Part shown: positions 29,053 to 62,281 of the stretch, piece by piece | Layout of the letters: the number at the start of each line of letters is the position of its first letter | How positions within the stretch are numbered: the first letter of the stretch is position 1 | NCBI GenBank assembly: GCA_016293205.1 | Contig: JAEDES010000002.1 | Coordinates: forward strand, 4,351-68,350 | Direction: 5' to 3' | DNA: 64,000 bases | DNA from: Bacilli bacterium | Lineage (GTDB): Bacteria; Bacillota_I; Bacilli_A; RF39; UBA660 | Made by a program: the position numbers and the translations under genes | The notes under the pieces: generated by a model | Told to the model about the DNA's origin: nothing | Databases searched by the model: none | The model's input: only the letters and a program-made list of their open reading frames with translations

Positions 29053-30588
29053 CTATTCTAAATTTAACTTTTCTTTGTCAATTCTTTGGAATAAAGCACT
29101 TGGTTGTCCTAATTCATAAGAATTATCAACTAAATAAGTATAATCTTTCTTATCATTATTTATTTGTTTTAAGATTTCACTACTTGTACTAGGCATAAAT
29201 GCTTCTAACATAGAACCACATACACGAATAGATTCTAATAAGTTATAAATAACTGTTTCTAATCTATCTAATTGAGCATCATCTTTAGCTAAAACCCAAG
29301 GAGTAGTTTCATCAATATATTTGTTTGATAATCTTAATACATTAAAGATTTCAGTCATAGCATCAGCTACTTGTAATGCTTCCATCTTAGCAGATACTTT
29401 TTCATCTAATTCTTTAATAGAATTAATAAATTTATCATCTAATTGAGCATCTACTACATTTTTATTAGTAACTTTTCCATCAAAGTATTTATTACCCATT
29501 GAAATAGTTCTTTGTACTAAATTTCCTAATACATTTGCAAGTTCACTATTAATCTTTTCAATTAATAAGTCATAAGTAATATTACCATCATTTGCAAATG
29601 GAATTTCATGTAATAAATAGAATCTAACTGCATCTACACCAAACTTATCTACTAAATCATCAGCATAAATAACATTTCCTTTAGATTTACTCATCTTGTC
29701 ACTACTTGTTAATAACCAAGGATGTCCAAATACCTTTTTAGGTAATTCTAGGTCTAATGACCATAAGAAACAAGGCCAATAAATAGTATGGAATCTAATA
29801 ATATCTTTACCAATTAAATGTAAATCAGCAGGCCATAACTTCTTGAATTCATCACTTTCATTATCAACATCATAACCAATATTAGTAATATAATTTGTTA
29901 AAGCATCTAACCAAACATAAACAACATGTTTTGAATCAAAATCTACAGGAATTCCCCATTTTAATGTAGTACGTGAAACACATAAATCTTGTAATCCTGG
30001 TTTAATAAAATTATTTAACATTTCATTCTTTCTAGATACTGGTTGAATAAAATCAGGGTGATCTTCAATATATTTTTCTAATTTTTCTTGATAATTACTT
30101 AATTTAAAGAAATATGCTTCTTCACTTTCTTCATGAACATCTCTACCACAATCAGGACATTTTCCATCCACTAATTGAGATTCAGTCCAGAATGATTCAC
30201 AAGGTGTACAATAAAGTCCTTTGTAAGTATCTTTATAGATATCTCCTTTGTCATACATCTTTTTAAATATATGTTGAACAACTTCTTTATGTTTTTTATC
30301 AGTAGTTCTTACAAAACGATCATAACTTGTATCCATTAAATCCCAGATACGTTTAATTTCTCCTGCTACATCATCAACAAATGCTTGTGGTTCTACTCCT
30401 GCAGCAGCAGCCTTTTCTTCAATTTTGATACCATGTTCATCTGTACCTGTTTGAAAATAAACATCATATCCTTTTAATCTTTTCCATCTAGCAATTGCAT
30501 CTGCTAAAACAATCTCATAAGTATTTCCAATATGAGGTTTACCAGAAGTATATGCAATAGCTGTTGAAATATAATACTTTTCTGCCAT
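29053..30588 (-). CDS. metG: Methionine--tRNA ligase (short form, no C-terminal tRNA-binding domain)
   Basis: 511 aa with HIGN (KPHIGNTYE), a CPDC zinc knuckle and KMSKS. Confidence 0.95.
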   Translation of the reverse strand: MAEKYYISTAIAYTSGKPHIGNTYEIVLADAIARWKRLKGYDVYFQTGTDEHGIKIEEKAAAAGVEPQAFVDDVAGEIKRIWDLMDTSYDRFVRTTDKKHKEVVQHIFKKMYDKGDIYKDTYKGLYCTPCESFWTESQLVDGKCPDCGRDVHEESEEAYFFKLSNYQEKLEKYIEDHPDFIQPVSRKNEMLNNFIKPGLQDLCVSRTTLKWGIPVDFDSKHVVYVWLDALTNYITNIGYDVDNESDEFKKLWPADLHLIGKDIIRFHTIYWPCFLWSLDLELPKKVFGHPWLLTSSDKMSKSKGNVIYADDLVDKFGVDAVRFYLLHEIPFANDGNITYDLLIEKINSELANVLGNLVQRTISMGNKYFDGKVTNKNVVDAQLDDKFINSIKELDEKVSAKMEALQVADAMTEIFNVLRLSNKYIDETTPWVLAKDDAQLDRLETVIYNLLESIRVCGSMLEAFMPSTSSEILKQINNDKKDYTYLVDNSYELGQPSALFQRIDKEKLNLE

Positions 30589-30612: not shown

Positions 30613-30864
30613 CAAAAAAAAATTATTATAAACATAAGGACGACAAAAATCGCGGTACCACCTTACTTTATAATAATTTGATATTATACACTCAAATAGT
30701 TAACGCCTATCTACGACTATACCTACATATCGATATAGTAGTTCAGAAGCCATATCTTATAACTTTCATTAATCCTCCACTTTCACCTTACAGAGGTCTC
30801 TACAAAAAACTACTGATTACAGACTCTTCATCATAACTTTTATAAACTCTAACTCGAGCTCTTG
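30613..30864 (-). promoter_or_regulatory. T-box riboswitch leader of metG
   Basis: The conserved T-box sequence GGTGGTACCGCG lies on the minus strand at 30662-30651. An extended -10 TGTTATAAT is at 30879-30871. The terminator stem AAATTATTATAAAGTAAGG...CCTTATGTTTATAATAATTT is followed by a U-run. A candidate AUG specifier at 30753-30751 is unverified. Confidence 0.8.
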
Positions 30865-40389: not shown

Positions 40390-42150
40390 CTATTCAAATT
40401 CTACAATATCACCAAATAGTTCTACTGCACTACTTACTATTATATCATCTTTTTCTACTTCTTCATAGATTTCTTCAGGTTCTTCAACAACTTCATAATG
40501 ATTACCATCTTTTAAAGAAGCTATATATTTATTCTTTTCAATTTCCCATTGTTCATCACTAATAATTGCTATTTTCTTATTAGAATTAGTAAGTTTATTA
40601 TAAACATATGTAATCTTATCAAGAATATTAAGATTTTGCTTAACAACAGAGTCATATTCATAACTTAAAATAAGACTATCTTCACTTACTGCACGAATTT
40701 TACCATCTAAAATAGCACATACAACGTATCCTACTTCTTGATCAAAAGTAAAATCCTCTAAAATACTCATATTATCAAGTTCAAACTTTAATAATTGTTT
40801 ATTAGCAAGAGCCATTGTATTATTGACACGTGCTTTCATAATATCATCAATATTTAATATAGAACCAGTTGATTCTTCTTCAGGCTCATAAGTATTAGAA
40901 ACAGCACTTATTGTTGGTTCTTCAACAACTTCCTTAGTAGTTTCAACAACCTTTTCAGAAACAACATTAACCACAGGCTCTTCTTTTACAATATCCTTTT
41001 CAACTATTTTTTCAACAACTTTTACTTCCTTATTTACAATAGAAGTCTCTTTATTTTCAACATTATTATTAACAACACCTACAAAATTATTTCCCGGGAA
41101 ATAATTTTTATTTAAAATATTATCATTTATAAACTTAATTAATAACATTTCAATAAAGATTTTTGGATTACTACTTCTTTTAATATCGAACATATTTTCG
41201 TTAATTAGGTTTACAAATTTTTGGACTAAATCAAGTGAAAAGTCTAAATTTTTATTAGAAATATAATAATCCACAAGTAAATTTCGAGAAAAATGCATCA
41301 ATTGAGACATAATTTGTATTAAATTTTTGCCTTCATTGTTAAATTTAGTGATTTTTACTAACACTTCTGATAAATTTCCACTAAAAATATCACTACAAAG
41401 CTCATACAAATTTTTAGATGTAATCATACCATTTAATTCAGCAAAAATTTCTAAAGTAATTTTCTCATCAGTATATGATCGTAATTTATCTAACATTCCT
41501 AATGAATCACGCATACCACCATCAGATGCTACAGCAATTTCCATTAAAACTTCATCATCTATGTCGATTTTTTCTTCTTTACATACATATTTTAATCTTT
41601 CAACAATCATTTCATCAGAAATTCGTCTAAAACTGAAGCATTGACAACGAGAAATGATAGTTTCAGGCACTTTTTGAGGGTCCGTAGTAGCTAAAATAAA
41701 AATAACATGCTCAGGTGGCTCCTCTAAAGTCTTTAAAAATGCATTAAAAGCACTTGTTGAAAGCATATGAACTTCATCGATAATATATACTTTATATTTT
41801 AATTCTGCAGGAACTAAAGAAACATTATTTCTTAATTCACGAATTTCTTCTACCCCATTATTTGATGCCGCATCAATTTCTATGATATCTACACATTCTT
41901 TTTCAAAAGAATGAAGACAATTTTTACATTTTCCGCAGGAATTTCCATCAATTGGCTCTAAACAGTTAGCTGCACGAGCAAAAATCTTCGAAACTGTTGT
42001 TTTTCCTGTACCTCTGGGCCCAAAAAACATATAAGCATGTGTTAAAGAATTATATTTAACAGAATTTAATAAGGTTTTTACTATTGTATTTTGACCTACT
42101 ACACTATCAAAATCTATAGGTCTATATTTTCTATATAAGGCTTGATACAT
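40390..42150 (-). CDS. dnaX: DNA polymerase III subunits gamma/tau
   Basis: 586 aa with GPRGTGKTT, a zinc module CGKCKNC, IIDEVHMLS and SRCQ. Confidence 0.95.
   Translation of the reverse strand: MYQALYRKYRPIDFDSVVGQNTIVKTLLNSVKYNSLTHAYMFFGPRGTGKTTVSKIFARAANCLEPIDGNSCGKCKNCLHSFEKECVDIIEIDAASNNGVEEIRELRNNVSLVPAELKYKVYIIDEVHMLSTSAFNAFLKTLEEPPEHVIFILATTDPQKVPETIISRCQCFSFRRISDEMIVERLKYVCKEEKIDIDDEVLMEIAVASDGGMRDSLGMLDKLRSYTDEKITLEIFAELNGMITSKNLYELCSDIFSGNLSEVLVKITKFNNEGKNLIQIMSQLMHFSRNLLVDYYISNKNLDFSLDLVQKFVNLINENMFDIKRSSNPKIFIEMLLIKFINDNILNKNYFPGNNFVGVVNNNVENKETSIVNKEVKVVEKIVEKDIVKEEPVVNVVSEKVVETTKEVVEEPTISAVSNTYEPEEESTGSILNIDDIMKARVNNTMALANKQLLKFELDNMSILEDFTFDQEVGYVVCAILDGKIRAVSEDSLILSYEYDSVVKQNLNILDKITYVYNKLTNSNKKIAIISDEQWEIEKNKYIASLKDGNHYEVVEEPEEIYEEVEKDDIIVSSAVELFGDIVEFE
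41089..41102. promoter_or_regulatory. Consensus Noc-binding site (NBS) inside dnaX
   Basis: ATTTCCCGGGAAAT exactly matches the 14-bp B. subtilis NBS palindrome. It encodes FPGN in dnaX. Confidence 0.55.
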
Positions 42151-42664: not shown

Positions 42665-42743
42665 CAAAAAAAGTGCACATAGATGGAGGCCCTTAAGGCT
42701 GCTACTTTCCAGTCCTGACCTGGTTCAAACACATCTATTGCAC
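42665..42743 (-). ncRNA. ffs: Signal recognition particle RNA, minimal (4.5S-like) form
   Basis: The minus strand reads GUGCAAUAGAUGUGUUUGAACCAGGUCAGGACUGGAAAGUAGCAGCCUUAAGGGCCUCCAUCUAUGUGCAC followed by a U-run. It contains the conserved domain IV core (CCAGGUCAGG..GGAA..AGCAGCC) and its ends pair into one long helix. Confidence 0.75.
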
Positions 42744-42749
42744 AAACTA

Positions 42750-42778
42750 ATTCTACTATTTTTGTGGATTTTTGTAAA
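42750..42778 (-). promoter_or_regulatory. Promoter of the SRP RNA gene
   Basis: On the minus strand: TTTACA (42778-42773), 17 nt spacer, TAGAAT (42755-42750). The predicted TSS is about 7 nt downstream, at the first G of the terminal helix. Confidence 0.5.
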
Positions 42779-42810: not shown

Positions 42811-42833
42811 TTTTCCACACTTTTTGTGGATTA
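42811..42833. promoter_or_regulatory. Head-to-head DnaA-box pair (module 1)
   Basis: TTTTCCACA-ctttt-TGTGGATTA; each box has 1 mismatch to TTATCCACA. Confidence 0.6.
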
Positions 42834-42834
42834 A

Positions 42835-42850
42835 TGTTTCACGTGAAACA
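42835..42850. promoter_or_regulatory. parS site 1 (ParB/Spo0J binding palindrome)
   Basis: TGTTTCACGTGAAACA matches the Firmicutes parS consensus TGTTNCACGTGAAACA exactly. It is part of a 24-bp perfect palindrome at 42831-42854. Confidence 0.8.
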
Positions 42851-42946
42851 TTAATTTTAAAGATTATACCCCTATTATTTTTCATTTAAACATTTTAATT
42901 TGTTTAAAATTCACTTTAATCAATAAAAAAATACTATTTATCAATT

Positions 42947-42969
42947 AAATTCACAAACTTTGTGGATTA
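42947..42969. promoter_or_regulatory. DnaA-box pair (module 2; upstream box degenerate)
   Basis: AAATTCACA-aactt-TGTGGATTA, with 3 and 1 mismatches respectively. Confidence 0.4.
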
Positions 42970-42978
42970 TTTTTTTAA

Positions 42979-42994
42979 TGTTTCACGTGAAACA
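42979..42994. promoter_or_regulatory. parS site 2
   Basis: TGTTTCACGTGAAACA, an exact consensus match, 9 nt after the DnaA box. Confidence 0.8.
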
Positions 42995-43013
42995 TAGTGA
43001 ATTATTAACAATT

Positions 43014-43040
43014 ATTGTTTAAAAATAAAGAAAATAAGCC
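43014..43040. repeat. AT-rich direct repeat, copy A
   Basis: ATTGTTTAAAAATAAagAAAATAAgcc matches copy B at 22 of 24 positions. Confidence 0.5.
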
Positions 43041-43085
43041 ATAAATTAATAAAAACATACATACCTATAGATTCATTTATAAATA

Positions 43086-43108
43086 TTATCAACCATTTTT
43101 GTGGAATA
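43086..43108. promoter_or_regulatory. Head-to-head DnaA-box pair (module 3)
   Basis: TTATCAACC-atttt-TGTGGAATA, with 2 and 1 mismatches respectively. Confidence 0.5.
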
Positions 43109-43109
43109 A

Positions 43110-43125
43110 TGTTTCACGTGGAACA
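43110..43125. promoter_or_regulatory. parS site 3 (one mismatch)
   Basis: TGTTTCACGTGGAACA, 15/16 to consensus, 1 nt after the DnaA box. Confidence 0.65.
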
Positions 43126-43156
43126 TAAAACTTAAAATCAAATGTTTGTTTATAAC

Positions 43157-43179
43157 TTATCAACAAGTTCTGTGGATAA
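43157..43179. promoter_or_regulatory. Head-to-head DnaA-box pair (module 4)
   Basis: TTATCAACA-agttc-TGTGGATAA; the first box has 1 mismatch and the second is perfect. Confidence 0.7.
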
Positions 43180-43180
43180 A

Positions 43181-43196
43181 TGTTTCACGTGAAACA
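43181..43196. promoter_or_regulatory. parS site 4
   Basis: TGTTTCACGTGAAACA, an exact consensus match, 1 nt after a perfect DnaA box. Confidence 0.8.
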
Positions 43197-43245
43197 TCTC
43201 TCAAAATAAATTTTAAACAACATTTGTTAATAAATTATTAAATAA

Positions 43246-43270: not shown

Positions 43271-43371
43271 AAAAATGCATTTAAATGAGTTTAGATTGAT
43301 AATCACTCACCAAAATAAAAATAAATCGCTTAAAATGCATTTTCTATTTTTAAGTCGCTTTTGTATAAAAA

Positions 43372-43380
43372 TGTGGATAA
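43372..43380. promoter_or_regulatory. Perfect DnaA box
   Basis: TGTGGATAA, 12 nt upstream of NBS 1. Confidence 0.6.
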
Positions 43381-43392
43381 AAATATCAAATT

Positions 43393-43406
43393 ATTTCCCG
43401 GGAAAT
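43393..43406. promoter_or_regulatory. Noc-binding site (NBS) 1
   Basis: ATTTCCCGGGAAAT exact match, within the 18-bp palindrome TTATTTCCCGGGAAATAA. A half-site TATTTCCC follows about 10 nt downstream. Confidence 0.7.
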
Positions 43407-43469
43407 AAATTAAAAAATATTTCCCACTTGATATATCAACAAATTAATAAACAATCTGTTCAAAAAAAT

Positions 43470-43483
43470 ATTTCCTGGGAAAT
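43470..43483. promoter_or_regulatory. Noc-binding site (NBS) 2, one mismatch
   Basis: ATTTCCTGGGAAAT, 13/14 to consensus. Confidence 0.5.
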
Positions 43484-43606
43484 AAAATTAAATCAATTTA
43501 AATTAAAATAAAAAGACTAACCTATTACAAATTAATTAGATTTTATTTTATAAAAATATATATAAATTTCCACAATATATTAATTGCATGATGTTTACAT
43601 CAAAAT

Positions 43607-43620
43607 ATTTCCCGGGAAAT
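43607..43620. promoter_or_regulatory. Noc-binding site (NBS) 3
   Basis: ATTTCCCGGGAAAT exact match, followed 3 nt later by a perfect DnaA box. Confidence 0.7.
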
Positions 43621-43623
43621 AAT

Positions 43624-43632
43624 TTATCCACA
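43624..43632. promoter_or_regulatory. Perfect DnaA box
   Basis: TTATCCACA. Confidence 0.6.
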
Positions 43633-43660
43633 AAAAAAACATTATTTATCTCAAAATGTT

Positions 43661-43669
43661 TTTTCCACA
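43661..43669. promoter_or_regulatory. DnaA box (1 mismatch)
   Basis: TTTTCCACA. Confidence 0.4.
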
Positions 43670-43682
43670 AGACACTTTTTGA

Positions 43683-49458: not shown

Positions 49459-49905
49459 TTACTTATTTTTTCGCATTCTCATGATAAAGTCTAGTCTAGA
49501 TGCTCTAGAAAGCTGATTTTCGATAGTTCTAAACGAACAAGGTACTGTAATTTCCCTATTATTATCAAATAAAATCTTAGTACTTGTACTATCAATTTTT
49601 TCAATCTTTTTAACCCTTTTTAATGAAATCCATACACAATCAGCGGCAGCTGGTGATGTTGTTGGAAATACAATTAAATTATCACTATCTTCAACAATAA
49701 TAGGTACTTTATATTCTGCACCTAATATATCTCTAGCACTTTCTTTTCTACCATTATAAGTACTGCCAAAGTATTTACAACTATCCTCCATTATTTTAAA
49801 TGGAACTTCATCCACAATAAATTTCTCATCATCCTCATAAATGATGCTTTTTTCCTCTTCTCCTGGCACAATTGCTAATGTACCATTACTTATCTCATAT
49901 TTCAT
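49459..49905 (-). CDS. ComK-family protein (short form)
   Basis: 148 aa. YEISNGTLAIVP, DSCKYFGSTYNGRKESARDILGAEYKVPIIV and LIVFPTTSPAAADCVWISLKRVKKIEK parallel the B. subtilis ComK core. It lacks the C-terminal ~45 aa. Confidence 0.65.
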   Translation of the reverse strand: MKYEISNGTLAIVPGEEEKSIIYEDDEKFIVDEVPFKIMEDSCKYFGSTYNGRKESARDILGAEYKVPIIVEDSDNLIVFPTTSPAAADCVWISLKRVKKIEKIDSTSTKILFDNNREITVPCSFRTIENQLSRASRLDFIMRMRKNK

Positions 49906-51201: not shown

Positions 51202-51334
51202 ATAATATTCCTTCTTTCTTTTATAGTTTTATTATTATTACTGTGGAAATTGTGGAAAACATTATTTTTCTCTTATATAACAACGAATTCTTATCAACAA
51301 CCACTGTGGATAAAATGTTTTTCTTTCCACACTT
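51202..51334. other. oriC, dnaA-dnaN half (DnaA boxes plus trio-like repeat and AT-rich tract)
   Basis: DnaA boxes are TGTGGAAAT (51242-51250), TGTGGAAAA (51251-51259), TTATCAACA (51291-51299), TGTGGATAA (51305-51313, perfect) and CTTTCCACA (51323-51331). A (TTA)4 repeat at 51229-51240 abuts the tandem boxes. Confidence 0.75.
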
Positions 51335-52714
51335 TTACACAACCCCGATATCTTTTTTCAATTTTTCAATGATATTAGCTAAATCTTTATTAACTTTTAT
51401 CTCGTTTTCTATCTTTTCAACAGAATGCATTACTGTAGAATGGTCTTTACCTCCAAATTCTGTTCCTATCTTAGGAAAAGACTCATTTGTAAGACTTCTT
51501 ACTAAATACATAGCAATTTGTCTTGGAAATGAGATATTAGAGCTTCTCTTTTTACTTCTTATATCTTCAACAGATATTTGGAAGTATTCAGATACAATCT
51601 TTTGTATTCGATGAACATCATCTTTTTCTCCCATTCCTTTACTTATATAGTCTTTTAATGCTTCTATTGCTAAATCTAAAGTTATTTCAGAACCACCCAT
51701 TATAGCAGAATAAGCAATAACTCTAGTAATAGACCCTTCTAGATTTCTAACATCAGTATTGATATTAGAAGCTATATATTCTATAACATCTTCAGGAATT
51801 TCTTGTTCAAAATTGCCAGCAATTATCTTCTTTTTTATAATTTCTGTTCTAAGTGCAAAGTCTGGGGGAAAAATATTAACTGTTAATCCCCAACAAAACC
51901 TTGTTTTTAAACGGTCTTCAAATACTTTTAAGTCATCAGGAGACCTATCTGATGAAATAATAATTTGTTTATTATCATTATGTAAATAATTAAACGTATT
52001 AAAGAATTCGTTCTGAGTACCAGAAGCACCACTTAAGAATTGAATATCATCGATTATTAATACATCTATATTTCTATACTTATCTTTAAAGAAATCAATA
52101 AAACTTAAATTAGTACCTTTATCATCTTTCTTAGTCATACTAATAAAATCTTGTATAAATTGATCACTTGTAACGTATAAAACCTTTTTATTTGAATGTT
52201 CTACCATATAATTACCAATAGCATGCATCAAATGTGTCTTCCCTAACCCACTATTTCCATATATAAATAAAGGATTATACATATTTCCTGGATTCTCAGC
52301 TACAGAAATCGCAGCAGCATGTGCAAACTTATTAGTATTCCCGACTATAAAGTTATCAAACGTATATTTTGACATTAAATTTGAACGAAAAGGAATTGCT
52401 TTATTAATAGTATTATCAACAGAATTGTTAATAACTTCTCCACTACTCTCCTCTTCCTCCTCAACTATATCATCTTCCGTCCATAAAACTATATCATAAT
52501 TACTACCTGTAACATCTGATAAAACCTTAACAATTAAATCATAATAGTTATCCATAATGTGCTTCTTATGTATTGATAAAGGAACGATAATATAAGCATT
52601 TTCATTATGTAACTTATATAATTTTGTTTCTGAAAACCACGTATTAAATAAAACTGGAGACAGTTCGTCTTTGATTCGTTCTAAAAAGTTAGACCATAAA
52701 ACATCAACGTTCAT
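51335..52714 (-). CDS. dnaA: Chromosomal replication initiator protein DnaA
   Basis: AAA+ motifs GNSGLGKTHLMHAI and IIDDIQFL, and a domain IV ending in KDHSTVMHS. Start set at MNVDVLWSNF, 9 nt after the GGGGGAG RBS; the ORF track begins 6 codons earlier at GTG. Confidence 0.97.
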   Translation of the reverse strand: MNVDVLWSNFLERIKDELSPVLFNTWFSETKLYKLHNENAYIIVPLSIHKKHIMDNYYDLIVKVLSDVTGSNYDIVLWTEDDIVEEEEESSGEVINNSVDNTINKAIPFRSNLMSKYTFDNFIVGNTNKFAHAAAISVAENPGNMYNPLFIYGNSGLGKTHLMHAIGNYMVEHSNKKVLYVTSDQFIQDFISMTKKDDKGTNLSFIDFFKDKYRNIDVLIIDDIQFLSGASGTQNEFFNTFNYLHNDNKQIIISSDRSPDDLKVFEDRLKTRFCWGLTVNIFPPDFALRTEIIKKKIIAGNFEQEIPEDVIEYIASNINTDVRNLEGSITRVIAYSAIMGGSEITLDLAIEALKDYISKGMGEKDDVHRIQKIVSEYFQISVEDIRSKKRSSNISFPRQIAMYLVRSLTNESFPKIGTEFGGKDHSTVMHSVEKIENEIKVNKDLANIIEKLKKDIGVV

Positions 52715-52879
52715 TGTTACCATCTCCCCCACAAAGTAATTAAACTACAATTATTCTACCTTAAAAATAAAAAAATGAAAACAATTTTTATCAAAAAATT
52801 AATTTTCTTTTTCCTAGTAAAAATAAATGTCAATTTTCCATTCAGTGAACTACTATAAATCATTATAAAACAAAAAACA

Positions 52880-59264: not shown

Positions 59265-60500
59265 ATGAATACAGATCCAAAAGATGAAGTAGTATACTTA
59301 TACTTAGATGACATAATACCAAATAGATTTCAACCAAGAGAAGTTTTTGATGAAAAAGCCTTAAAAGAACTTGCTGTATCAATTAAAGAACATGGTGTAA
59401 TCCAACCTATTATCGTAAGAAGTGTAAAAGACAAATACGAAATAATTGCTGGAGAACGTCGTTATAAAGCATCTGCTTTAGCAGGATTAACAAAAATACC
59501 AGCGATCATAAGAGACTTAGATGATAAAGAAAGTTCAAAAGTAGCCTTACTAGAAAATCTACAAAGAAAGAACTTAACACCTATCGAAGAAGCAAGAACA
59601 TATCAAAAAATACTGGAAATAGATGAAATGACTCAAGAAGATTTGGCAAAAACAATGGGAAAAAGCCAATCTGCAGTAGCTAATAAATTAAGATTATTAA
59701 CACTACCAGATGAAATTCAAGATTCTCTATTAAAAGAACAAATCTCAGAACGTCATGCAAGAGCATTATTAAATTTAACAGATGCTCCAAAACAAATTGA
59801 ATTATTAAAGAAAATAATTAATCAAAAAATGAGTGTTAGAGCTGTAGAAGAAGAAATAAAAAGATTAAACAACAAAGATGGAATAAGTAACATGGCTACT
59901 ACAAGTCAACAAATAACTGTTACTCCAACACCAATCAATCCAACACCATTATCTCCAACAATAATGCCAGTTGAAGAAATTGTTGAAGTAGAACCATATG
60001 AAGGTTATAAAGTAGTTCCACCGGCAGAAGGTAACACATTTATTAATTATGAAAATGCTGCCGATGTTGATGAAGAAGAAACAGAGGAATTAGATGAACC
60101 TATGAATTTTAATAATATAAATGAACCTGTTGATATTAATGCATTAAAGAAACAAGCTGAAGATATCAAGCCTCAAGAAACAAGCAATAACTTAGATAGT
60201 TTACTTAATATAAATGTTCCAGGACAAAAAGTATATAATTCATATGCGGAAAAAGCAATTAGTGAAGGATATGCACCTCAACAACCTAAAACAAAAGACT
60301 ATTTCAGCGCACCAGATTTCTCAACTATTGATCTACCAACAGTAGCAGAACCAGCTGTTTATACAGTAGACGATGCAATGAATAAAATTAGAGATTTAGT
60401 AAGAGATTTAGAGTCACATGGCATAAGCGTTCATAAAGATGAAATGAATTTTGAAAGAACTTTCCAAGTAATAATTAAAATTGATAAAAATGTTGAATAA
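59265..60500 (+). CDS. noc: Nucleoid occlusion protein Noc (ParB paralog) with a long internal low-complexity insertion
   Basis: 411 aa with a ParB N-domain (IIPNRFQPR, IIAGERR). The HTH region GKSQSAVANKLRLLTLP...ISERHARAL resembles B. subtilis Noc rather than Spo0J. It sits after rsmG and before soj-spo0J. Consensus NBS sites are present in the window. Confidence 0.75.
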   Translation: MNTDPKDEVVYLYLDDIIPNRFQPREVFDEKALKELAVSIKEHGVIQPIIVRSVKDKYEIIAGERRYKASALAGLTKIPAIIRDLDDKESSKVALLENLQRKNLTPIEEARTYQKILEIDEMTQEDLAKTMGKSQSAVANKLRLLTLPDEIQDSLLKEQISERHARALLNLTDAPKQIELLKKIINQKMSVRAVEEEIKRLNNKDGISNMATTSQQITVTPTPINPTPLSPTIMPVEEIVEVEPYEGYKVVPPAEGNTFINYENAADVDEEETEELDEPMNFNNINEPVDINALKKQAEDIKPQETSNNLDSLLNINVPGQKVYNSYAEKAISEGYAPQQPKTKDYFSAPDFSTIDLPTVAEPAVYTVDDAMNKIRDLVRDLESHGISVHKDEMNFERTFQVIIKIDKNVE

Positions 60501-60597: not shown

Positions 60598-61404
60598 ATG
60601 GGAAAGGTTATATCATTAGTAAATCAAAAAGGTGGAGTAGGAAAGACAACAACTAGTATTAATCTTTCAGCATCATTAGCAGTATTAGGAAAAAAAGTTT
60701 TATTAATAGATTTAGATCCTCAAGGTAATACAACTACTGGTGTTGGAATAAATAAAGGAGAGATTGATAAAAGTGTCTATGACGTTTTAATTGATGAATG
60801 CGCTATAACAGAAGCAATGGTTAAAACTAAATATAAAAATTTATATGTTTTACCAGCAACTATCAATTTAGCAGGAATCGACAGCGAATTAATGGAAAAA
60901 AGTCGCCAAGAAGATAACTTTGATAAAGGTAAACAATTAAAGAAACACTTAGAATCAATAAATGACAGTTTTGACTACATAATTATAGATTGTCCACCAT
61001 CTTTAGGAGTTATTACAATCAATGCTTTAACAGCATCAAATTCAGTAATAATTCCAGTACAATGTGAATTCTTCGCACTAGAAGGAATCACACAATTATT
61101 AAAAACAATAATGTTGGCTCAAAAAAAATTAAATCCAACTCTTGATATTGAAGGAGTATTATTAACAATGTTAGATTCCAGAACAAACCTAGGATTTGAA
61201 GTTGTTGATGATATTAGAAAATTCTTCAAAGAAAAAGTATACAACACAATAATTCCAAGATTAGTAAGATTAACAGAAGCTCCTTCACACGGAGAGCCAA
61301 TTATTGCATATGATCCAAAAAGTAGAGGATCTGAAGCATATCTTAATTTAGCGAAGGAAGTGATTGAACGCAATGGAAGAGAACAAAATGGAAGTAACCA
61401 GTAA
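60598..61404 (+). CDS. soj: Chromosome partitioning ATPase Soj/ParA
   Basis: 268 aa with the deviant Walker A NQKGGVGKTT and the IIIDCPPSLG motif. Confidence 0.93.
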   Translation: MGKVISLVNQKGGVGKTTTSINLSASLAVLGKKVLLIDLDPQGNTTTGVGINKGEIDKSVYDVLIDECAITEAMVKTKYKNLYVLPATINLAGIDSELMEKSRQEDNFDKGKQLKKHLESINDSFDYIIIDCPPSLGVITINALTASNSVIIPVQCEFFALEGITQLLKTIMLAQKKLNPTLDIEGVLLTMLDSRTNLGFEVVDDIRKFFKEKVYNTIIPRLVRLTEAPSHGEPIIAYDPKSRGSEAYLNLAKEVIERNGREQNGSNQ

Positions 61405-62281
61405 AAGAAGAGCTTTAGGTAGAGGATTAGAAGAACTTTTTTATAACGAACCAATCGATTATAACAAAGTAGAAGAAAAAATAATTACAGAAACACCAAA
61501 AGAAGCCATAACAATGGTTAAGTTATCTGAATTAAGAAGTAATCCATACCAACCAAGAAAAGTATTTGATGAAGATGCCTTAAAAGAATTAGCAGCATCA
61601 ATCAAAGAACATGGAGTATTCCAACCAATTATTGCAAAGAAAAGTATAAAAGGTTACGAAATAATTGCTGGAGAACGTCGTGTTAAAGCATCAATTATGG
61701 CTGGATTAGAAGAAATTCCAACAATCATAAGAAATTTTGATGATACAGAAATGATGGAAATAGCATTACTTGAAAACTTACAAAGAGAAAACTTAAATGC
61801 TATTGAAGAAGCAAATGCTTATAAAAAATTATTAGAAACATTAAGTCTAACACAAGAACAATTAGCTGCAAGACTTGGTAAAAGTAGAAGTCACATTACT
61901 AATATGATAGGTTTACTTGCATTACCTGAAGTAATTCAACAAGATGTAAGTGAACAAAAAATTAGTATGGGACATGCTAGAGTATTAAGTAAGCTTGACA
62001 ATAAAGAACAACAAAGAGAATTAGCAGATAAAATTATAGCAGAAGGACTAAGTGTAAGAAGTTTAGAAGAATTAACTAATTCTGAAGAAAAATATCCAAA
62101 AGCACATAAACAAGTAAAAACAAAAGAAACATCAAATGATTATAAATATCTACAAGATGAATTATGTGAAAGATTAGGTGCAAAAGTAAGAATTAAGAGT
62201 AATAAAATTGAAATAAGCTTCGTAAATGGAAATGATCTTAATAGATTACTAGAAATAATGCATATTGAGCCTAGAGGTTAA
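61388..62281 (+). CDS. spo0J: Chromosome partitioning protein Spo0J/ParB
   Basis: RALGRGLEELF N-terminus, NPYQPRK, IIAGERR and the HTH GKSRSHITNMIGLL...MGHARVL (ParB-type). Start uncertain: in-frame ATGs occur at 61364, 61373 and 61388. Confidence 0.9.
   Translation: MEVTSKRRALGRGLEELFYNEPIDYNKVEEKIITETPKEAITMVKLSELRSNPYQPRKVFDEDALKELAASIKEHGVFQPIIAKKSIKGYEIIAGERRVKASIMAGLEEIPTIIRNFDDTEMMEIALLENLQRENLNAIEEANAYKKLLETLSLTQEQLAARLGKSRSHITNMIGLLALPEVIQQDVSEQKISMGHARVLSKLDNKEQQRELADKIIAEGLSVRSLEELTNSEEKYPKAHKQVKTKETSNDYKYLQDELCERLGAKVRIKSNKIEISFVNGNDLNRLLEIMHIEPRG

Follow-up and report, generated by a model that had tools for sequence, protein, structure and literature searches.

The coupling between the onset of chromosome replication and chromosome segregation is understood in only a few model species: in Bacillus it works by way of diffusible Soj, in Caulobacter by way of DnaA at the centromere. 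In E. coli, the datA locus is a high-affinity DnaA-box cluster near oriC that lowers the available DnaA and is associated with IHF-dependent hydrolysis of DnaA-ATP; in Bacillus subtilis, DnaA-box clusters and parS sites are separate loci. The control of DnaA by Soj/Spo0J in the latter species was reportedly described by Murray and Errington in 2008 and by Scholefield in 2011 and 2012. Initiation in B. subtilis is held in check by the DnaA-box clusters, which are genetically synergistic with Spo0J/Soj (Okumura et al. 2012, PMC3245932), and in the same species ParB at parS controls ParA, which controls the oligomerisation of DnaA (Koh 2022, PMC7614844). DnaA binds DnaA boxes at the parS centromere of Caulobacter crescentus (Mera, Kalogeraki and Shapiro 2014, reviewed in PMC6399470), and this centromere-bound DnaA is also covered in PMC11151105. 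On Vibrio cholerae chromosome 2, ParB2 and the initiator RctB both bind the rctA/parS2 locus (PMC3688505; PMC6399470). Here we describe a 64,000-nt stretch of contig JAEDES010000002.1 (the window, whose numbering is used for all coordinates; GC content 27%) in which a parS array and a DnaA-box cluster are interleaved at the nucleotide level in a single intergenic spacer.

A parS array interleaved with DnaA boxes

The array and its boxes sit in the 990-bp spacer between gyrA and ffs, the signal recognition particle (SRP) RNA gene, ~8 kb from dnaA. All four of its 16-mers match TGTTNCACGTGAAACA at 16/16 on one strand: site 1 at 42835..42850 (TGTTTCACGTGAAACA, upstream of the ffs promoter), site 2 at 42979..42994, site 3 at 43110..43125 and site 4 at 43181..43196. 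An earlier examination of the letters alone (the sequence-only reading) had recognised four consensus parS sites and scored one of them at 15/16; the identification stands but the exception does not, since site 3 reads TGTTCCACGTGAAACA on the minus strand and is also a 16/16 match. These are the only parS sites with 0-1 mismatch in the window, and a mere 0.09 matches would be expected in the shuffled window even when 2 mismatches are allowed. They have the attributes of chromosomal parS: each is a 16-bp palindrome, they are origin-proximal, soj and spo0J are present and the site is kept across relatives. The four form an array of predicted ParB (Spo0J) loading sites, an origin-proximal centromere.

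On the low-coordinate side of each parS, which is the origin-distal side facing tadA, there is a proximal DnaA box on the minus strand with its TT end towards the parS. The proximal boxes of modules 1 and 2, as we call the first two parS sites with their boxes (42825..42833 and 42961..42969), both read TGTGGATTA on the plus strand and TAATCCACA on the consensus strand, with 1 mismatch to TTATCCACA; in module 3 (43100..43108) the box is TGTGGAATA/TATTCCACA, with 2 mismatches, and in module 4 (43171..43179) it is TGTGGATAA/TTATCCACA, with none. The gap between box and parS is 1 nt in modules 1, 3 and 4 and 9 nt in module 2. A distal, inverted box on the plus strand, 5 nt from the proximal one, completes each module: TTTTCCACA at 42811..42819 (1 mismatch), AAATTCACA at 42947..42955 (3 mismatches, and weak), TTATCAACC at 43086..43094 (2 mismatches, with TTATCAACA in other strains) and TTATCAACA at 43157..43165 (1 mismatch). 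The proximal boxes thus share an invariant TCCACA core with 0-2 mismatches to TTATCCACA, and the distal ones are weaker, with 1-3. The four modules of the sequence-only reading were recovered with their coordinates and sequences, as was the box-N5-box-N1-parS geometry that it had given for three of the four (modules 1, 3 and 4). It had also noted that flanks and spacers differ, and indeed, apart from parS and the core of the box, no similarity among the four was found in these. The modules are nearly identical in ten contigs of the same species, the sole geometric change being a 6-nt inter-box spacer in module 1 of one contig (L005).

When boxes with at most 1 mismatch are counted, there are 8 in the spacer and 47 in the window versus 25.8 expected from shuffles (~0.4 per kb). 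Several boxes therefore share one intergenic region near oriC and outside it, which is, in its layout, a DnaA-box cluster in the B. subtilis sense. Besides the modules, the box search found an orphan perfect box in the same spacer at 43372..43380 (minus strand). A second orphan perfect box, at 43624..43632 (plus strand), is 2 nt from a palindrome at 43606-43621 that resembles a Noc-binding site. Right after the gyrA terminator is a conserved element, CTTGTGGAAAAAACATTTT, that includes a DnaA box (43653..43671, minus strand); 12-19-nt matches to it, or fragments, occur in every lineage compared, including the box-less L012 described below.

Some other readings of the modules were tried and rejected. 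The sequence TCCACActtttTGTGGA of module 1 could be mistaken for a hairpin or terminator; it is simply the inverted box pair, without a proper T-run and on the strand opposite to the local genes, and the terminator-like feature is missing from the other modules and from the relatives. As to an extra origin or unwinding element, inspection disclosed no trio run, meaning three or more NAN trinucleotides starting within a few nt of the box, 3' of the parS-adjacent boxes. An Rfam search of the window returned the SRP RNA and a distant T-box only, with no structured RNA at the modules.

The parS-adjacent 9-mers match the boxes of the clade's own origin

Whether the 9-mers are DnaA boxes can be judged from the origin itself. 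The dnaA-dnaN spacer of the window contains a predicted unwinding module (51229..51313, minus strand) composed of an inverted box pair (51291-51313), tandem boxes (51242-51259) and four TAA repeats (51229-51240). In the window and in every relative fetched, this spacer has an upstream box TTWTCCACAg followed ~50 nt on by two tandem boxes, TTTTC(C/A)AC-TTTTCCACA, then one G and then TAATAATAATAA, which is TAA x4 and resembles DnaA-trio repeats. The tandem boxes of the window are TTTTCCACA and ATTTCCACA, one base before TAA x4, an arrangement kept in all relatives. The upstream origin box of the window is itself an inverted pair, TTATCCACA-N5-TGTTGATAA, the same pair as that of module 4 (TTATCAACA-N5-TGTGGATAA), and box variants of the TTATCAACA type are found upstream of dnaA as well. 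A box followed by DnaA-trios is the basal unwinding architecture of bacterial origins (PMC8287927), and the dnaA-dnaN module matches that architecture.

The initiator is equally canonical. The C-terminal domain of DnaA aligns to the E. coli domain IV-DNA structure 1J1V (E = 2e-21) and to B. subtilis 8BTG (E = 5e-28), and the recognition segment GG(K/R)DH(S/T)TV(M/L)H is conserved; its base-contacting residues are taken to be those reportedly described by Fujikawa in 2003. TTWTCCACAg is what stands beside the trio-like repeats of the origin, so parS is abutted by the clade's own origin box, and the parS-adjacent 9-mers are, from their sequence, genuine DnaA-type boxes, as the sequence-only reading had held when it gave the 9-mers of the modules 0-3 mismatches. 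The variants used in the modules and in the origin agree in L017-L019 (TTTTCCACA in both) and disagree in L011 (L-numbers denote fetched loci).

Comparison among sister species

The orthologous loci were fetched via their GyrA homologues and were unselected for the box pattern. The best GyrA relatives carry the public label 'Tenericutes/Mycoplasmatota bacterium', and one more distant match is a 'Candidatus Coprovivens' metagenome-assembled genome (MAG); we presume that the relatives so labelled, and with them the uncultured host of the window, belong to the gut order RF39. One locus, L016 (95% GyrA identity), ends 300 bp past gyrA and gives no spacer data. Ten species sampled in this way have a conserved gene order and a parS array in the gyrA-tadA spacer of all, with 4-6 parS in every species save L261, whose contig ends after one. 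The gyrase identity among five of the lineages is 87-91%. The spacers are 18-23% GC, and the only elements they have in common are parS, the boxes, palindromes resembling Noc-binding sites, two short elements and ffs.

Six of the species (the window, L011, L017, L018, L019 and L260, with 28 parS in total) bear boxes. A TWWTCCACA stands beside parS at a gap of 0-4 nt in 21/28 and of 6-9 nt in 3/28; one further site has the degenerate TTTTTCACA and the remaining 3/28 have nothing. All of the adjacent boxes lie on the tadA side with the TT end facing parS, and no box of the opposite polarity was found within 10 nt of any of the 28 parS. Without L260, 17/22 sites in five species are boxed at a gap of 0-3 nt, for which the binomial tail, uncorrected for relatedness, is 3e-41; TWWTCCACA occurs in these genomes at a background of 2.8e-4 per position on each strand. 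The sequence-only reading had proposed a check for chance 9-mers in AT-rich DNA, and the observed frequency is far above this background.

The distal inverted box is consistent only in the species of the window, with traces in L011, L051 and L071, and an invariant box-N5-box-N1-parS geometry was not found in the orthologous regions, where the distal box is mostly missing and the gaps span 0-9 nt. With 21 sites at 0-4 nt and 3 at 6-9 nt, the fusion cannot be called hard-wired, as the sequence-only reading had it; the evolutionary unit, judged by this comparison, is one parS with one abutting box at loose spacing. Four species (L012, L014, L261; L262; two sublineages) are box-less, with an adjacent box at 0/17 parS; their spacers hold 1-2 boxes in all versus 6-12 in the box-bearing relatives, and those of the L012/L014 group have 4-5 Noc-site-like palindromes. 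The sequence-only reading had stated that orthologous spacers retaining parS without the boxes, at variable spacing, would count against it, and part of this is what the four sister species of the two sublineages display. The juxtaposition survives from species to species even though the spacers cannot otherwise be aligned. This hints, without proving it, that the start of replication and segregation are wired together on the DNA.

Recurrence of the composite in other genomes

A wider genome scan, with one genome per species, used the pattern CACGTGRAACA-N(0-14)-TWWTCCACA in a single box polarity and gave at least 120 loci; the scan selects for the pattern, and its cross-phylum matches are therefore unusable for frequency. 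Among the matches listed are RF39-like genomes whose gyrA-downstream spacer likewise holds the composite; their GyrA identities run from 91% down to 66%. The matches listed also include one Terriglobus MAG (60% GC) with four dispersed parS, all of the form TGTTTCACGTGAAACA-ta-TTTTCCACAg (L059, L088, L097, L098), an alphaproteobacterial MAG boxed at 2/3 parS and a 24% GC MAG boxed at 3/8 parS, as well as clade-specific single sites, with gaps of 1, 5, 6 and 8 nt in Devosia, Emticicia, Rufibacter and Caulobacteraceae, respectively. As a control we employed 156 perfect parS from metagenomes, among the matches listed and unselected for boxes. These have 1 box within 31 nt (either side, either polarity) versus 0.78 expected, and this lack of enrichment indicates that ordinary parS are unboxed. 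The composite is thus lineage-specific yet recurrent, as far as such sequence matches tell. Chance occurrence in AT-rich DNA was accordingly rejected, given the box background, the 0.09 shuffled parS and the control sites.

Two of these genomes show additional associations. Three of the four parS of the Terriglobus MAG are also near a GAAA(A)CACGACA(G) motif, which raises the possibility that Acidobacteriota have a longer, repeated centromere element. A distant RF39-like MAG (L106:1-45, L062) has a chain parS-tg-TTATCCACA-tt-ATTTCCCAGGAAAT, in which the DnaA box stands between parS and a Noc-site-like palindrome.

Growth of the arrays and other elements of the spacer

The arrays grow by tandem duplication of units that contain parS and its neighbouring sites. 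In L014 the unit is a Noc-site-like palindrome 57-58 bp before parS, present five times with residual flank similarity, and in L019 it is parS-box-92 nt-box, present three times. In the sister lineage of L014 and L012 the box-less spacer is 1.7 kb long, and the duplicated two-site unit of L014 (L014:8708-9990) gives parS a different partner. A recent duplication alone was rejected for the window, as the module flanks have no similarity and the unit is kept across lineages; to this extent the sequence-only reading was right to set recent duplication aside. Its further step, from constant geometry to selection on the arrangement, fails as proof, since per-element selection together with co-duplication can hold sites adjacent.

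Noc-site-like palindromes, TATTTCCCGGGAAATA, were found by motif search at 43392-43407, 43469-43484 and 43606-43621 in the spacer and at 41088-41103 inside dnaX; the four window copies (one with a single mismatch) compare with 0 expected by chance. The sequence agrees with the consensus of the Noc-binding site. The spacer of every relative examined has 1-5 copies, and a copy in the dnaX region was seen in 7/7 lineages checked. With parS and these palindromes together, the spacer gathers putative sites for both ParB-family proteins. A rule that DnaA boxes stand beside Noc-site-like palindromes is not supported: the window has a single instance (43606-43632), L106 has two, and most palindromes are unboxed.

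The likely SRP RNA promoter, TTTACA-17-TAGAAT (42750..42778, minus strand), has aaaTCCACAaaa, with the TCCACA core of the DnaA box, in its spacer, and the equivalent promoter of several relatives has the final parS of the array directly upstream of it. Another element, AAAATGCATTTTAAGCGATTT at 43323-43343 in the minus-strand reading, has a 21-nt exact match in L012 and a 15-nt match in L011, and in the window it is part of an imperfect inverted repeat CGCTTAAAA...TTTTAAGTCG.

Interpretation

On balance, we incline towards the view that the locus is an origin-proximal centromere array which, in this lineage, doubles as a DnaA-box cluster with functional adjacency; taken whole, this explanation seems to us somewhat probable, and its parts differ in strength. 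DnaA and ParB quite likely both bind here, to judge by their predicted sites, and the boxes have probably been selected for DnaA binding. That the adjacency itself is functionally relevant is a tentative proposition, a direct interplay of ParB and DnaA is plausible, and the specific version with a polar roadblock is unlikely. ParB dimers would load at parS and domain IV of DnaA would occupy the abutting box, so that the two would be neighbours on the DNA, and the locus would be a high-affinity DnaA sink near oriC, much like the B. subtilis clusters and, in this case, inside the ParB partition complex. The bound DnaA could be a one-sided obstacle or gate for ParB-CTP clamps departing from parS, ParB/Soj could act on DnaA parked at the centromere, and the availability of DnaA would in this way be tied to the state of the centromere, much as in Caulobacter. 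The gate is the mechanism that we prefer because the polarity is fixed and the gaps are short, because ParB sliding is sensitive to obstacles (roadblocks are reported to hinder the clamps) and because direct ParB-DnaA contacts have been reported in D. radiodurans and V. cholerae (PMC7022226).

Several observations weigh against this explanation, and most of them would be expected if the spacer merely housed two independent functions: a parS array for segregation and SMC loading, and an ordinary cluster of boxes that titrates or senses DnaA, as such clusters titrate DnaA in B. subtilis (PMC3245932). The adjacency, the polarity and the near-constant gap would then be by-products of the duplication of a founder unit, an account that we regard as possible, if rather unlikely. 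The duplication units are visible in L014 (palindrome-57/58 bp-parS, five times) and L019 (parS-box-92 nt-box, three times), and, since indels have little to hit in a 1-2-nt gap, mere descent could preserve both adjacency and polarity. In box-bearing spacers, orphans account for about half of the boxes and have the same orientation as the others. Gaps of 1-2 nt are the commonest, the sequence in the gaps is T-rich and the distribution tails off to 9 nt, a picture resembling slow indel drift; over the range of 0 to 9 nt the two sites are rotated against each other, which disfavours a rigid protein-protein docking geometry. The two sublineages that keep the parS array have no adjacent boxes (0/17) and have also lost nearly all of the orphan ones, the two kinds vanishing together; the boxes are thus dispensable for centromere function. 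In the distant L047, L103 and L106 the box is on the gyrA side instead, as the inversion of a segment would predict, so a logic of 'towards the origin' is not general; that the boxes are always origin-distal is true only in the family of the window. The control of DnaA by ParA in B. subtilis is, furthermore, independent of parS location (PMC7614844), and the genome scan, being selected for the pattern, cannot say how frequent the composite is. Against the independence of the two functions, 24/28 parS retain a box within 9 nt although the rest of these 20% GC spacers has been randomised, and a box of opposite polarity occurs at 0/28. The composite also persists to 66% GyrA identity, and it stands at four dispersed, non-tandem Terriglobus loci (60% GC) and at 2/3 and 3/8 parS in two unrelated genomes. 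It is this survival of the unit in randomised surroundings, together with the polarity and the dispersed composites, that leads us to favour a real constraint.

ParB might instead recognise the flanking 9-mer as a degenerate third half-site, or some other lineage-specific protein might bind it. There is a resemblance, in that TTTTCCAC and the parS half TGTTNCAC agree at 7/8 positions and differ at position 2 only, and P. aeruginosa ParB is reported to bind many copies of a motif related to parS (PMC5961200). At position 2, however, the flanking motifs in the sequences listed have T or A and never the G that is fixed in the parS consensus, and CCAC is always followed by the A that a DnaA box demands, where a parS half-site would have G. 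Position-2 G is reportedly the base that separates parS from Noc sites (Jalal et al. 2020 are said to have found this). The identical motif beside the DnaA-trio-like repeats of the origin, and the distal boxes (TTATCAACA), which match origin box variants and not parS, further reduce this idea to a very improbable one. Hardly more probable is that the boxes are operators through which DnaA regulates ffs-tadA-dnaX-ybaB-recR, perhaps with ParB spreading as co-regulator, a role that would be compatible with the other readings. The array is upstream of the SRP RNA promoter-like site with its TCCACA, the clamp-loader gene dnaX is among the genes downstream, and some B. subtilis DnaA-box clusters regulate their neighbours (PMC3245932); most of the boxes, on the other hand, are 60-900 bp upstream of the promoter and tied to the parS positions instead, and neither the gene order nor the setting of the promoter differs in the sister species that lack boxes.

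A bolder version of the favoured explanation regards parS and its abutting, polarity-fixed box as a composite cis-element of ancient and repeated origin. It would extend through the RF39 order and recur independently in the Terriglobales (Acidobacteriota), the alphaproteobacterial MAG and the low-GC MAG, with DnaA gating the loading or release of ParB-CTP clamps, or ParB/Soj acting on parked DnaA. We consider this conceivable and rather doubtful; if it were true, replication licensing and segregation would be wired in cis in many bacteria, generalising the single example of Caulobacter. For the locus itself, if the functional interpretation is true, an array with a box on most ParB loading sites would be the most direct cis-wiring of both machines yet seen, and the composite, a compact 26-40-bp module, would offer a natural case for how site-specific proteins shape the loading and spreading of ParB-CTP clamps. 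If the adjacency has merely been inherited via unit duplication, the locus shows how a large lineage of uncultured gut bacteria gains, co-amplifies and loses its centromere arrays and its clusters of DnaA boxes.

Gene context

Locally, all genes are on the minus strand: recR, ybaB, dnaX, tadA, the SRP RNA gene (42667-42747, identified with Rfam), the spacer, gyrA, gyrB, recF, a ComK-family gene, dnaN and dnaA (51335..52732, with a canonical domain IV). The GC skew changes sign at ~53 kb, next to rpmH/rnpA; this and the order rpmH/dnaA/dnaN place oriC at 51.2-53.1 kb, and hence the array at a distance of 8-10 kb from it. Next, at 58.5-62.3 kb, come rsmG, a Noc-like ParB paralogue (59265-60500, plus strand, upstream of soj), soj (60598-61404, plus strand) and spo0J/parB (about 61364-62281, plus strand). 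Noc proteins are mostly shorter than 300 residues; the paralogue here has 411, of which residues 8-206 match Noc/ParB (ParB_N + HTH_ParB) and the ~200 C-terminal ones have no Pfam match.

The ComK-family gene between dnaN and recF (49459-49905, minus strand; Pfam E = 8e-44) is found in 7/7 relatives whose loci reach this position, an odd site for a homologue of a competence regulator. A 78-codon open reading frame (ORF) within the spacer (43275-43511, plus strand) overlaps two of the Noc-site-like palindromes; it is a gene call on one public contig (L004), has no Pfam match and is probably spurious. The T-box leader at 30633-30843 (minus strand; Rfam 95.7 bits), upstream of a 511-residue ORF (29053-30588), has no bearing on the parS array.

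Comparison with known systems

Like the E. coli datA locus, the array is a cluster of boxes near oriC and a putative DnaA sink; unlike this host, E. coli has no ParABS system. With the B. subtilis clusters it shares intergenic boxes near oriC and outside it, here 8 boxes per kb at 8-10 kb from oriC, the difference being that here boxes and parS are fused at the nucleotide level with a fixed polarity. The protein set of the B. subtilis Soj/Spo0J control is likewise encoded in the window, but the Soj pathway of that species is diffusible and independent of parS position, and it neither needs nor predicts abutting boxes. The V. cholerae rctA/parS2 locus is similar in that a centromere site doubles as a binding or titration site for the initiator (putative in our case), linking segregation and initiation; it differs in its initiator, RctB in place of DnaA, in its plasmid-derived replicon and in the architecture of its site.

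The sequence-only reading knew of no description of a hard-wired fusion of DnaA boxes and parS in cis, repeated four times near dnaA. For DnaA at a centromere there is a precedent in the Caulobacter parS region (PMC6399470); regarding abutting boxes the reading agrees with our literature search, in which neither parS with abutting DnaA boxes nor such arrays in Firmicute-type genomes were found in the full texts searched. DnaA at a centromere being known from Caulobacter, and an initiator at parS from V. cholerae chromosome 2, the abutting-box array is a variant of these, whose mechanism is unproven and for which neutral descent is possible.

The closest likeness is to Caulobacter, where DnaA boxes also lie within the centromere region a few kb from the origin, so that initiator and ParB share a locus, and where the proposed role is likewise to couple initiation potential to centromere behaviour. 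A change in the segregation of the centromere that depends on DnaA-ATP is known from experiments in Caulobacter only. Among the scan matches listed there is a Caulobacteraceae parS-8 nt-TTATCCACA, which may be, we infer, the published DnaA site. The host here is of the Firmicute type, with Soj, Spo0J and Noc, and we know of no polar anchoring system in it. What sets this locus apart from the Caulobacter centromere is its architecture: the box abuts parS, mostly at 0-4 nt, and a single spacer holds 4-6 copies of the composite.

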